From positions 1 to 64,000 of IMG/VR virus record IMGVR_UViG_3300045988_163776: a stretch of DNA of 64,000 bases; one strand, 5' to 3'. Shown piece by piece: positions 43,034 through 45,847 of this stretch (its first letter is position 1; the number at the start of each line of letters is the position of its first letter). Position numbers and translations under genes: made by a program. Below the pieces are notes generated by a model that saw nothing but the letters and a program-made list of their open reading frames with translations, searched no databases and was not told the DNA's origin. The stretch comes from a virus.

Positions 43034-45847
43034 TTGAACTATCAATTAATAGCACCAAGAATCCCATAGTACACAGTGGTCGAATAGGTGCTAACAAATA
43101 GAGGATTTAATTTTTCTGATATATAGCATTATCTAAATACAACAGATGATGATATTTTAAATCCTACACAAATAGAAAATATGAAAGCAGGAGTTAAATT
43201 ACTTACTAATCATATTCAAAATTTTTCTAAAACAGTTATGATTGTAGATCCAGACTGTGATGGTTTTACAAGTTCAGCAATTTTGACGAATTACTTATAT
43301 CGCTTGTTTCCAAGATATGCAACTTCAATAACCCATATTATGCACCCCGGAAAATAGCATGGTATTATTTTAGACGAGCTTCCAGATGACGTTAGTCTTG
43401 TTATTGCAGCAGATAGCGCAAGTAATGATTATGAACAACATAAAATCTTAAAAGAAAAAGGTATAGATGTTTTAGTTATTGATCATCATGAAGCTGAAAA
43501 TATAAGTGAATATGCTTGTGTCATTAATAATCAGTTATGCGATTATCCTACAAAGTCTTTATCTGGTGCTGGTATGGTTTATAAATTTTGTAGTTATATA
43601 GATTAGATAATGGATGTACATTATGCAGATGAATTTTTAGATTTAGCCGCCTTAGGGATAATAAAAATATTGTCCTAATATATCTTTTCACTTTGACTAA
43701 AGTGGGTCAATTTTTATTAATTGGCTAACGAGGAATTCTAAGTACAATAGAGCAGATGTTATGACGTATTGTATATGAAAATCTCGTGGGAATCATATTA
43801 TATAACATCTCTTTAATAAAGACAAGGAGATTTAAAATGAAAATAATAGATTTAAAGCCTAAAACACAAGGTATTTATAAGATAACTTTTCCTAACGGAA
43901 AAATTTATATTGGATTAAGTGTTGATATTAAAAGAAGAATGTAGGAACATAACAGTCCTCATGAAAATAAAACACCTTGCGATTGTGCAATTAAAAAATA
44001 TGGAAAAATAACAGAAATAGAAATTTTAGAAATTGTAGAAAATGCTGAGGATTTAAATGAACGAGAAATATATTGGATAGAACAATATAATTCTACTGAT
44101 AGAAAAATAGGATATAATTTAACTCCAGGGGGGTATATGACTCAGGGAGAAAATAGTGGAAGAGCAGTTTTTACTAACGAAGAAGTTTTAGATATTAGAA
44201 AAAGAAGGTTTTATGGAGAAAGAAGAAAAGATGTTTATGAAGATTATTCTGAACATCCATTAGGAACTTTTGATAGAGTATGGCTGGGTCGAGGATATCC
44301 TAATATTGGGGTTGAATATTTAATTCCATATAATCCAAATTTTAATAGAAAATATTTTTCTTCTATTGCCAATTCTGGAACTGGTTGTGGAAGAGCAAAA
44401 TTTACTGAAGAGGAAATAAAGGATATTAGAAATCGTTATGATAATTTAAATCAGACAGTATCTGAAATTCATAAAATTTATTCTAAAGTTTCTATTGCTA
44501 CAATTAGACGTATTTGCAAAAGAGAAACTTATAAAAATATATAATATGAAGCCTGTATCGACTATCCCTTAGGTTGAAATGCTGGGGAGTAGGGTTACTA
44601 TTAGTACGTAACTAGGTTTTAGGAAACGAAGCCTATGAAAACCGAAAGAGATATAGTTATTTTGTAAAAAATAATTAAAAAATAGTCAGTGCTATTGGAA
44701 ACAATAGAAATCACGAATTGCAGACGTTATGAGCTTAAAAGATTTTGAGACAAAAAGAATTATAGAAAAAGGCATTGCTAATATTAGGAATCCTTTTATA
44801 AAAACTATGATTCAAAGAAATTCATTTTCTATTGGAAATGAATTAACGCCAACTGGAATTGCATTTTATATAGCGCCATACGTGAATGCTACCATTAGAG
44901 TAGGAGATTTAGATGAAAAAATGCTTTTATTTGAATCTATGCTTGAATATAAAGCTTATCAACAAATTCCATCAACAAAACGTGGCTGTAAGGGCTAGTT
45001 AGAAAGCAAAGTAGAACAAGCTTGTAGAAATTGTAATAATATAAAAAATAGACAAACAAGAGAAAGAGATAATAGTATAGAAATAGCAGAAACCATTATT
45101 CGTGAAAATGATTTATTACAAAATAAAATTCTTGTAATTCAACTTCCAAAAGAGGCAAAATGCAATAAAAATCTTACTGGTTTAATTGCTAATGTTTTAA
45201 TGGATAGATATAAAAGACCAGTCTTATTATTAAATTAGACCGAAAGAGATAACAAGGTTTGGTGGGAAGGCTCTGGCCGAGGTTATGATAAATCAAAGTT
45301 ACAAGATTTTAAATAGTTTCTATATGATTGTGGTCTCTAGGACGATGGCGGCTATGCTCAAGGACATGCAAATGCATTCGGTTTTAGTATAAGCGAAGAA
45401 AAGTTTAACTTATTTTTTGAAATAGTTGAAAATAGATTAGAAGATTTTGAGTTCTCACCAAATTATAAGGTAGATTTTATTTATGGTATGCGAGATTGTC
45501 AAGCAAAAGATATTCTTGAAATAGCTAATTTGAAATCTTTATGGGGACAAGGAGTAGAAGAGCCAAAAATAGCTTTTGAAAATATAAATATTACTTCTAA
45601 CAATTTAACGCTTATGTCACCAGATAAAAGCCCTACTATCAAAATAACATTACCTTCTGGAATTAGTTGTATTAAATTTAAATCCTCACAAGAAGAATTT
45701 GATAAGTTAAATCCAGAATTCGGAAATGGCTGTACTGTTATTAATATAGTAGGCAGATGTGAAAAAAATGAGTGGGGAGGTAACATTACCCCACAAATCT
45801 TAATAGATGACTATGAAATAGTTTCAAATAAAAAATATTATTTTTAA
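43034..45847 (+). CDS. RecJ-like DHH-family ssDNA exonuclease split by a group I intron (exons 43034..43659 and 44716..45847); about 9 TAG
   Basis: TTG start 8 nt after AAGGAGG. DPDCDGFTSS, DHH and LSGAGMVYKF motifs. Junction LAALGI|IADVMSL matches RecJ ALGTVADV. Confidence 0.6.
43660..44715 (+). other. group I intron in the RecJ-like gene, carrying a GIY-YIG HEG
   Basis: P1: exon UUAGGGAU pairs with intron GUCCUAA 12 nt downstream. Core TTGGCTAACGAGGAATTC...CTCGTGGGAATC. P7-like CGACTATCCC lies after the HEG. Omega-G is at 44715. Confidence 0.65.
43837..44544 (+). CDS. GIY-YIG homing endonuclease (intron-encoded), one TAG
   Basis: GIYKITFPNGKIYIGLS...YWIEQYNS...GYNLTPGG. Confidence 0.65.

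Follow-up and report, generated by a model that had tools for sequence, protein, structure and literature searches.

Group I introns are known from phages of Firmicutes, among them SPbeta (bnrdE/F), SPO1 and Twort. The closest described counterpart of the locus reported here is the td intron of phage T4, an IA2 intron which interrupts the thymidylate synthase gene and carries a GIY-YIG endonuclease ORF. Within a 64,000-nt stretch of viral DNA (IMG/VR record IMGVR_UViG_3300045988_163776, positions 1 to 64,000, hereafter the window; all features described are located on the plus strand) a 1,056-nt insertion was identified at 43660-44715, which with a probability of about 0.9 represents a mobile group I intron of the T4 td type (IA2-like), residing in a RecJ/YorK-like gene of a phage in which TAG encodes glutamine. 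The observation had been raised by an earlier note and was confirmed at this position, whereby the L001 allele, protein family matches, td homology and covariation sustain the interpretation. The mobile element is well supported and of an ordinary kind, and existing knowledge on the working of group I introns and GIY-YIG endonucleases is left unchanged.

The extent of the insertion was derived from a blastn comparison of the window with L001, a 98%-identical phage contig which lacks exactly the bases 43660-44715 and whose flanks are colinear across them with zero gap in between. The L001 gene is uninterrupted, encodes a protein 98% identical to the spliced window product and provides the intron-less sequence TTAGGGATCATAGCTGAC / TTTAGCTGCTTTAGGGATCATAGCTGACGTTATGAGT. 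Exon 1 ends with ...TTA GGG AT (43659) and exon 2 starts with A ATT GCA GAC GTT ATG (44716), the predicted ligated-exon junction being ...GGGAU joined to AAUUGC or, in its longer form, ...CCUUAGGGAU joined to AAUUGCAGACG. The spliced join reads LAALGIIADVMSL, in full identity with the uninterrupted protein P0001 and in colinear alignment with 10 homologues; hence the insertion is precise, its excision restores a conserved reading frame, and the boundaries and junction given in the earlier note stand.

The first exon (43034-43659) begins with a TTG start codon after an AGGAGG ribosome-binding site, shares the N-terminus MNYQLI with its homologues and contains TAG in frame four times, each translated as Gln; its assignment was based on its translation, the Pfam DHH match and its colinearity with L001. 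The second exon (44716-45850, with the TAA stop at 45848-45850) codes for the DHHA1 and RecJ_OB domains and holds another four in-frame TAG codons. Removal of the intron yields a protein of 585 aa, which matches a RecJ-like phage family end to end (phrog_2484 'RecJ-like ssDNA exonuclease', residues 1-582 of 585, E 1e-149) and which combines DHH (E 8.8e-17, residues 72-209), DHHA1 (E 4e-5; with 24.4 bits the cut-off of 25.9 is narrowly missed) and RecJ_OB (E 5.9e-7) in one polypeptide. The host had thus been named correctly as a RecJ-like DHH exonuclease; its identity to SPbeta YorK amounts to ~35%, and the gene neighbourhood (YorF, YorH, YorK-like RecJ, Pol III alpha) is SPbeta-like as well. 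As both exons and the endonuclease ORF contain in-frame TAG, this codon must be a sense codon (Gln), a reading which is consistent over the whole window and which the earlier note had left unmentioned. Owing to the intron and the eight in-frame TAG codons, the recJ-like gene would be called as at least two fragments; the nearby genes for NrdD, Pol III alpha and the DnaB-like protein would likewise be fragmented, and Rfam RF00028 as well as gene calling with table 11 miss all of this. A promoter scan returned 27 sites, with 21.2 +/- 3.9 expected, and no terminator was found in the scan.

At the 5' end of the intron, an internal guide sequence (43669-43676) was identified, whose P1 and P10 pairings covary with the exon sequence among six introns at the RecJ site. 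P1 consists of five base pairs formed by GUCCU (43672-43676), located 12 nt inside the intron, and the exon bases GGGAU (43655-43659), placing the pair U43659·G43672 at the splice site; over 24 family members, 85% of the P1 cells are paired. P10 is formed by AUU (43669-71) and AAU, with which exon 2 begins, and the final intron base is omega-G (44715), as had been claimed. Concerning P1, the distance of 12 nt that had been given for the guide held, and the register moved by one base: with the originally proposed pairing UUAGGG/CCUAA, the cleavage site would lack its U·G, and inspection of the junction sequences by eye shows mispairing for L166 and L183. In five other viral contigs (L034, L150, L166, L169, L183), RecJ-like genes harbour full-length homologous introns at this codon position. 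Within the six same-site introns P1 stays at 5 bp with its U·G and P10 at 3-6 contiguous bp despite differing exon bases, with compensatory changes of P1 at positions -2 and -3, and all six spliced junctions conform to G-x-x-[AGS]-D-x-M.

Downstream of P1, the 5' strand of P3, AUAUCUUUU (43680-43688), was assigned to the partner AAGAGAUAU (44646-44654), with P3' placed as in T4 td. In the window intron P1 and P3 are not separated by a hairpin, i.e., P2 is absent, and two hairpins occur between the P3 5' strand and J3/4 (43689-43725), tentatively named after their P3.1-like position. P3.1 is an optional pairing of group I introns (PMC3873408). Hairpin A, CACUUU-GACU-AAAGUG (43689-43704), is changed on both sides in 6/6 pairs; hairpin B, GUCAAUU-UUUAUU-AAUUGGC (43706-43725), is a by-eye reading, mostly misaligned by MAFFT (43-65% paired). 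Next follow the P4-P5-P5a domain and the 5' strand of P6 (43728-43789), with helices paired in 98%, 83% and 100%. P4 corresponds to ACGAGG/UCUCGU, with 17 sequences having G-C and 7 having A-U as the fourth pair; P5 (UUC/GAA) lies between UCUAAG..UAUGA, a variant 11-nt receptor for GAAA tetraloops; UACAAUA/UAUUGUA forms P5a, and GG (43788-89) represents the P6 5' strand. The P6a 5' strand, UCAUAUUAUAU (43793-43803), pairs with AUAUAAUAUGA (44539-49), its sequence varying and its complementarity being kept in every family member. On the basis of family pairing, the P6a 3' strand was grouped with the P6 3' strand CC (44552-53) as 44539-44553. The ORF resides in the terminal loop of P6a, wherefore the 3' strands of P6a, P6 and P3 lie behind it. 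The earlier description of a core split around the ORF, with P3-P6 in front and P7 to P9 behind, is thus roughly right, except that P6a' and P6' (44539-44553) and P3' (44646-44654) follow the ORF.

The 3' part of the core starts with the P7 5' strand CGACUA (44559-44564), which is invariant in 24/24 sequences and which, when a sister intron and td are aligned to RF00028, coincides with the R element. It belongs to the P7 motif CGACUAUCCC, found at 44559-44568 and thus, as previously noted, 3' of the ORF; G44560 pairs with C44687 at the position of the guanosine-binding pair. Between P7 and P3' resides a peripheral domain (44566-44635) of three helices paired in 94%, 100% and 100%: P7.1 (44566-87), P7.2 (GUUAC/GUAAC, 44594-612) and an extra hairpin UAGG/CCUA (44613-35) with the family-invariant loop UUUUAGGAAACGAAG, with double changes in 4/5 pairs of P7.2 and 4/4 pairs of the UUUUAGGAAACGAAG-loop hairpin. 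The P3 3' strand is followed directly by P8, AGUUAUUUU-GUAA-AAAAUAAUU (44655-76; together 44646-44676), which differs in sequence in every RecJ-site intron and was assigned by its covariation, 9/9 pairs carrying double changes at 86% pairing. The last segment (44683-44715), defined by the family helices and the P1/P10 comparison, comprises the P7 3' strand UAGUC (44683-87), P9 (CUAUUG-GAAA-CAAUAG, closed by GUG/CAC, 44689-714) and omega-G. Two candidate pairings were rejected. Reading the S-like string AGAUAUAGUU (~44647-56) as P7' would put a G·U at the guanosine-binding pair, and the DnaB-gene intron and other family members showed this string to be P3' plus the start of P8. P3 as GGCU (43723-26)/AGCC (44630-33) fails in L034, L150, L169 and L183, and AGCC closes a local hairpin covarying family-wide, P3 being reassigned by its td position. 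P7.1 and P7.2 lie between P7 and the P3 3' strand, in the order of td, as expected for IA2; the canonical 5' domain P1-P2-P3-J3/4-P4 is not present. Lacking P2 and having two hairpins behind the P3 5' strand, the intron was filed as a td-like or IA2-type variant and not as strict IA2. The P2-less layout with two hairpins before J3/4 is unusual among phage IA2 introns.

The proposed structure was scored on a MAFFT alignment of 24 related introns from viral contigs, with helix partners slid by 1-3 columns serving as control. Among these introns, 84.9% of 2,034 cells were paired as compared to 38-47% in the slid controls, a difference which is inflated since the structure was built on the window sequence; this leaves the compensatory counts unaffected, according to which 63 of 92 pairs are altered on both sides. 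The covariation score was 0.431 versus at most 0.133 upon sliding, and 0/500 shuffles reached it. Pairing amounted to 98% for P4/P5, 100% for P7 (invariant GACUA/UAGUC), 96% for P9 and 78% for P3, three pairs of which are doubly changed; where MAFFT misaligns, i.e., in hairpin B and P6a, 43-65% was obtained. In summary, P3-P6, P7-P9, the P3/P7 pseudoknot and the G-C pair for guanosine binding were all found. Chance does not account for these features: for the core motif GACTATCCC..GGGAGTAGGG, two occurrences were counted in the window against an expectation of 0.00.

The ORF within the P6a loop (43837-44544, 235 aa) matches Pfam GIY-YIG (PF01541, E 1.3e-11, 45.1 bits, cut-off 22.6) and PHROG homing endonuclease families, in agreement with the endonuclease gene first noted here. 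In a BLASTP comparison with the I-TevI catalytic domain, 99 residues were aligned at 35% identity, the catalytic GIY, YIG, R, H, E and N among them, and the closest relatives of the window endonuclease are orthologues in other RecJ-site introns (48-57% identity). The ORF includes one in-frame TAG, its stop codon lies within the P6a 3' strand, and its ribosome-binding site AAGGAG (43824-29) is located inside an 8-bp hairpin (-5.6 kcal/mol). Exon differences between window and L001 number 42, six of which cluster within -11..+19 of the junction, where ~0.7 would be expected, those six being synonymous; this cluster fits co-conversion and would, together with the presence/absence polymorphism between the two 98%-identical phages, point indirectly to homing and recent mobility. 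Compared with L001, the window shows further endonuclease-like insertions, which are free-standing (32658-33497 and 48118-48788).

As to relatives of the intron, more than 90 loci of viral contigs (IMG/VR) share GTATCGACTATCCC..GGGAGTAGGG..TAGGAAACGA. Next to the full-length same-site introns, the one of L034 being ORF-less (425 nt), 5'-truncated copies with a 3' exon of similar kind were found in L136 and L161. Further members reside in other genes, DnaB-like genes and others, including the window's own DnaB-like gene (~39890-40907), and the intron 3' half is homologous to an ORF-less intron which L001 carries in its neighbouring DnaB-like gene. Sister introns from the window and IMG/VR are identical in architecture and helix positions and differ in guide sequences, P8 and P6a; these sisters are unannotated metagenomic sequences and not a described family.

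Infernal had been proposed as a check, and it would have misled: RF00028 of Rfam gave zero matches in the window at the gathering score and none in 43500-44900 even at E<=10, nor did the Rfam group I model match the ORF-less same-site intron of L034 at E<=1 or the region 51500-58700 of the window. As a positive control, the established T4 td intron was run with the same tool and scored 40.3 bits versus the Rfam cut-off of 50; the silence of Rfam is therefore weak counter-evidence, the model being insensitive to the td-like subgroup. The ORF-less sister intron of L001 obtained 27.8 bits (E 4.8e-5) with RF00028. In GenBank phages, blastn found zero matches to the intron 5' half; a segment of Enterococcus phage EF1, adjoining the CDS of DNA polymerase III alpha, is 77% identical to the 3' half, and an HNH 'Phage intron' endonuclease is annotated nearby in that record. 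The 30 best-matching GenBank phage records of RecJ/YorK homologues contain no intron in this gene (one-piece matches), and a narrow literature search found no open-access paper describing recJ-like genes of phages as hosts of group I introns.

We infer RNA splicing as well as the activity and site specificity of the endonuclease from the DNA sequence, and the following course of events would be expected. Initially the pre-mRNA would fold, with the guide GUCCU pairing to the last five exon bases GGGAU to form P1. A free guanosine, bound at the G44560-C44687 pair of P7, would then attack after U43659. Next, omega-G (44715) would occupy the guanosine site, with exon 2 positioned by the P10 pairing AUU/AAU, and exon ligation would finally yield the mRNA of the 585-aa DHH-DHHA1-OB exonuclease. 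By analogy to I-TevI, the endonuclease may cut intron-less alleles of the gene in co-infecting phages, and the intron, together with a little flanking exon sequence, would then be copied into them as the break is repaired.

Could the insertion instead be a decayed remnant of a group I intron that no longer splices, leaving either a recJ-like pseudogene or two separate polypeptides, namely a DHH-domain protein encoded from 43034 up to a TAA stop (43679-81) and a DHHA1-OB part starting from the ATG at 44729? Such decay would be in line with the read-through of exon 1 into the intron, which stops after six codons, with the presence of an ATG ORF (44729-45847) and with Rfam finding no intron; yet it is improbable, as the family consensus helices are all intact in the window copy (all 92 consensus pairs are standard, with zero non-pairs), as its P7, P6 and J-region motifs correspond to family-invariant columns, P1 and P10 suit its own exon bases, and both exons are ~98% identical to the intron-less allele with zero frameshifts. 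A GIY-YIG cassette lacking any ribozyme, which would have entered recJ by intron-less homing or gene disruption, might be considered in view of the two free-standing insertions mentioned above. Such an origin is very improbable, given that the ~350 nt of non-coding sequence around the ORF are conserved with introns of other genes and form covarying helices, that an ORF-less version occupies the same site in L034, and that the insertion starts after a U and ends in a G with a matching guide sequence. Likewise, four related intron cores within 64 kb, sharing exact strings of at least 14 nt, can confuse assemblers, and the 1,056 nt might accordingly have been mis-joined from repeated intron-like sequence. 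That such a chimera arose is hardly credible: its guide is complementary to its own exon ends, unlike the guides of the other introns, this site is occupied by the same intron and endonuclease in independent contigs from other samples, and the boundaries are base-exact.

Taking the insertion as a mobile td-type intron, the RecJ/YorK-like exonuclease is added to the phage DNA-metabolism genes invaded by such introns, and the window and L001 constitute a natural intron-plus/intron-minus allele pair of 98% identity, suited for homing studies. Moreover, intron-borne endonuclease genes circulate among TAG-recoded phages, having adopted the recoded codon. A more far-reaching and rather doubtful suggestion, bearing on the four td-like introns of the 64-kb window, would be that they stand for an undescribed, abundant td-like subclass (no P2, two P3-side hairpins, UUUUAGGAAACGAAG loop), invisible to Rfam, which may have spread into many replication genes of large phages with recoded TAG. 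The endonuclease genes of this subclass contain recoded TAG, so that synthesis of the homing endonuclease, not splicing, would rely on the phage's stop-codon reassignment machinery and might even be timed by it.

Compared with T4 td, the window intron differs at several points. In td, P3 leads directly to J3/4, whereas in the window intron, which is devoid of P2, the P3 5' strand is succeeded by two hairpins and P3' is preceded by the extra hairpin with the invariant loop UUUUAGGAAACGAAG; td further comprises P9-P9.1-P9.2, as opposed to the single short P9 with its GAAA loop. The C-terminal part of the window endonuclease does not align with the DNA-binding domain of I-TevI, and the recoded TAG in its ORF likewise sets it apart from td/I-TevI. 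The host genes differ too, thymidylate synthase on the one hand and a RecJ/YorK-like exonuclease on the other, both being phage genes of DNA metabolism. In its core, the window intron nevertheless shares with td the strings CGACUAUCCC..GGGGAGUAGGG and the P7 3' strand UAGUC, the P4 helices were counted as the same (ACGGGG/UCCCGU in td, ACGAGG/UCUCGU in the window intron), the order P7 - P7.1 - P7.2 - P3' - P8 - P7' is identical, and both introns house a GIY-YIG ORF in the P6a loop, ending a few bases from P6'/P7.

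The product of a continuous recJ-like gene (P0001), retrieved by protein search, is 98% identical to the protein obtained when the two RecJ/YorK-like exons of the window are joined, and its source contig L001 (Logan assembly, 125,886 bp) shows 94-99% identity to the window across 21 kb. Within the recJ-like gene, L001 differs by lacking exactly the 1,056 nt at 43660-44715, the junction reading ...TTAGGGAT|CATAGCTGAC... in L001 and ...TTAGGGAT|AATTGCAGAC... in the joined exons of the window. Exon 1 (+ strand) opens with a TTG at 43034, preceded by an AGGAGG ribosome-binding site, and stays in frame to 43659, while in exon 2, on the same strand, coding for this type of protein resumes at 44716 and ends with TAA (45848-45850). 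Joining 43659 to 44716 yields a 585-aa protein with Pfam matches to DHH (E 8.8e-17), RecJ_OB and DHHA1, whose residues 1-582 match PHROG 2484 'RecJ-like ssDNA exonuclease' in one stretch (E 1e-149) and which shares ~35% identity with YorK of Bacillus phage SPbeta. Given the missing bases in L001 and the continuity of the spliced protein, the earlier claim of an intron at 43660-44715 splitting a RecJ-like DHH gene was borne out. The gene neighbourhood (YorF, YorH, DnaB, Pol III alpha, ThyX, NrdD) is of the large SPbeta-like phage type.

The RNA folds into a group I core. P1 is formed by GGGAU (43655-43659) and GUCCU (43672-43676) with U43659·G43672 at its end, and P10 by AAU (44716-44718) and AUU (43669-43671); a P2 is absent. 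P3 pairs AUAUCUUUU (43680-43688) with AAGAGAUAU (44646-44654), and between its 5' strand and J3/4 lie two hairpins (43689-43704 and 43706-43725), tentatively named P3.1-like, 'P3.1' being listed as an optional group I pairing (PMC3873408). P4 (ACGAGG/UCUCGU), P5 (UUC/GAA, with UCUAAG..UAUGA as a variant of the 11-nt GAAA receptor), P5a (UACAAUA/UAUUGUA) and P6 (GG/CC) are followed by P6a, in which UCAUAUUAUAU (43793-43803) and AUAUAAUAUGA (44539-44549) enclose the ORF. P7 consists of GACUA (44560-44564) and UAGUC (44683-44687), and the 3' domain further comprises P7.1 (44566-44587), P7.2 (44594-44612), an extra hairpin (44613-44635) with the 15-nt loop UUUUAGGAAACGAAG, P8 (44655-44676) and P9 (CUAUUG-GAAA-CAAUAG, closed by GUG/CAC). 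The arrangement given in the earlier note, P3-P6 before and P7-P9 after the ORF, holds for P7-P9 but not for the 3' strands of P6a, P6 and P3, which follow the ORF. The proposed omega-G at 44715 does end the intron, and a terminal G is found in 6/6 full-length copies at the RecJ site, that of the window included.

For covariation, 24 family members were reduced to ORF-deleted 'mini-introns' and aligned (MAFFT), the window structure was projected and pairs were counted. Standard pairs occupied 84.9% of 2,034 cells as compared to 38-47% with the 3' partners slid by 1-3 columns, a measure biased upward as the structure was derived from one aligned sequence; compensatory counts are unaffected by this, and both sides had changed in 63/92 pairs. 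The covariation score was 0.431 versus <=0.133 for slid versions, and the observed values were reached by 0/500 shuffles. Strongest were P4/P5 (98% paired), P7.2 (100%), the extra hairpin (100%), P8 (86%, with 9/9 pairs compensatory) and P9 (96%); P6 and P7 are invariant. The extra hairpin stem covaries in 24/24 members with double changes in 4/4 pairs, its loop being identical in all but L034 (GUGAUAGGAAACGAC). Its UUUAGG could pair with UCUAAG of P5, a partner missing in some members. Hairpin B and P6a, stems of variable length that MAFFT misaligns, scored lower (43-65%), although visual inspection showed complementary P6a strands in all members.

The Infernal search by which the earlier note had proposed to verify the intron returned no group I match from Rfam, either for the whole window at the gathering score or for 43500-44900 at E<=10. 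The archetypal T4 td intron, searched alike, itself stays below the cut-off of 50 bits, with 40.3, and the miss was therefore not taken as evidence against an intron. The DnaB-like gene of L001 contains an ORF-less sister intron that gave 27.8 bits (E 4.8e-5, RF00028) and to which the 3' half of the RecJ-site insertion is plainly homologous. With td itself the 3' half has CGACUAUCCC..GGGGAGUAGGG and the UAGUC strand in common; the window contains this motif pair two times, with zero occurrences expected, and two motif scans identified >90 loci of the subfamily in IMG/VR viral contigs. Segments 77% identical to the 3' half were also observed in Enterococcus phage EF1 (MF001358; L002 2501-2611), overlapping the 3' end of a 'hypothetical protein' CDS downstream of the annotated DNA polymerase III alpha subunit CDS, and, over 66 nt, in all 14 Prevotella Lak megaphage records. 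EF1 and the Lak megaphages probably carry unannotated introns of the subfamily.

Five further viral contigs (L034, L150, L166, L169, L183) have full-length introns of the subfamily in RecJ-like genes, inserted at the identical codon position; the copies in L136 and L161 are truncated at the 5' end and adjoin a 3' exon of the same kind. A script identified a 5-bp P1 ending in U·G in 6/6 full-length copies including that of the window, in the versions GGGAU/GUCCU, GGCCU/GGGCU, GGCUU/GAGCU and GGGCU/GGCCU, and P10 has 3-6 contiguous pairs in all six despite differing exon bases. The previously claimed pairing of exon end and guide stands, with its register shifted by one base: UUAGGG/CCUAA lacks the U·G at the cleavage site and, by eye, mispairs in the junction sequences of L166 and L183. 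All six spliced junctions read G-x-x-[AGS]-D-x-M, that of L183 (...LDLVAVGLVADMMDL), for example, fitting the family consensus.

The predicted GIY-YIG endonuclease gene was confirmed as a 235-aa ORF (43837-44544, one TAG; Pfam GIY-YIG E 1.3e-11; PHROG homing endonuclease families), which over its first 100 residues shares 35% identity with I-TevI; GIY, YIG, Arg, His, Glu and Asn are aligned between the two. The AAGGAG ribosome-binding site of this ORF falls within an 8-bp hairpin (-5.6 kcal/mol), and the stop codon within the 3' strand of P6a. In the set of fetched loci, its identity is highest to ORFs in other introns at the RecJ site (48-57%), as compared to 27-38% for those in subfamily introns at other sites. 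In-frame TAGs occur in 4/5 orthologues at positions differing from the window ORF, and all orthologues are full length only with TAG as sense. The recJ-like gene has four in-frame TAGs in each exon, and so have most long ORFs of the window in-frame TAGs, endonuclease genes being richest (up to 7); examples are 43355, 43604, 43942 and 44996. As two TAGs align to invariant or near-invariant glutamine columns (Q303, and residue 108 of a K-Q-H-G motif) among 10 homologues, TAG is apparently a glutamine codon throughout the window. A suppressor tRNA was not found within the window, its sole tRNA being tRNA-Leu(UAA) (105-181).

Further introns reside nearby. One of the same subfamily (~39890-40907) interrupts a DnaB-like helicase gene (exon ORFs 38844-39887 and 40918-41406) and has a GIY-YIG ORF (40060-40746) in the P6b loop; in L001 (7393-7716) this intron has lost 683 nt of the ORF but keeps the last ~15 codons. 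A third, td-like group I intron (51638-52646, 1,009 nt) in the Pol III alpha (PHP) gene is missing from L001, begins after T, ends with G and has the core strings AACGACUAUCC and AAGAUAUAGUC; Rfam gave no match to it, and its GIY-YIG ORF (51962-52609, with five TAGs in frame) is located not in P6a but in the stretch from the P8 region to the P7 3' strand. The anaerobic ribonucleotide reductase (NrdD) gene contains a fourth, group I-like intron (57554-58511), with a P1 (ACUCCU/GGGAGU) with U·G, core strings UAAACGGGC..AAUCCCGUAGGG, AACGACUAUCG and AUAUAGUCU, a 3' end ...CGAAUG before GCCGAAAAU and a 197-aa ORF (57751-58344) which looks like an HNH-type endonuclease; the L001 nrdD is interrupted elsewhere, after its 415-aa ORF, by a GIY-YIG ORF. 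L001 differs further by an insertion (32658-33497) and a replaced stretch (48118-48788), with one ORF each (32749-33492, 7 in-frame TAGs; 48124-48792, 5), whose N-termini look like those of free-standing HNH-type endonucleases (..W.C.C.CG motif).

By what is established for group I introns and for homing of the I-TevI type, P1 would form and exogenous guanosine, bound at the P7 site G44560-C44687, would attack after U43659; omega-G 44715 and P10 would then position exon 2 for ligation. Alleles without the intron, as in L001, would be cut by the endonuclease and would acquire the intron, together with some flanking exon, during repair. Among 42 exon differences between the alleles, 6 fall at -11..+19 of the junction with ~0.7 expected, in a 30-nt span picked after data inspection; all six are synonymous, their density is ~10x background (window 43648-43678, 44716-44735), and one (C to A at +1) gives rise to the first pair of P10. 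Such crowding is the pattern that co-conversion during homing would leave.

That the intron is dead, or the gene codes for two polypeptides, is unlikely: every helix is intact in the window copy, its guide matches its own exons, and these are ~98% identical to the intron-less allele without a frameshift. An endonuclease cassette without ribozyme is contradicted by the covarying flanks and by the L034 copy, 425 nt long and ORF-less, and mis-assembly is improbable as independent contigs have the same arrangement. The element belongs to a long-known kind, the td-type phage group I introns that carry a GIY-YIG homing endonuclease gene. Its novelty lies in the host gene RecJ/YorK, for which a narrow literature search found no published intron and the 30 best-matching GenBank phage records no interrupted homologue; also of note are the Rfam-undetected subfamily and its occurrence in a TAG-recoded phage. 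As in td with I-TevI, the endonuclease ORF resides in the P6a loop, but the subfamily differs from td in its 5' domain and in the extra conserved hairpin (44613-44635), to which T4 td has no counterpart.
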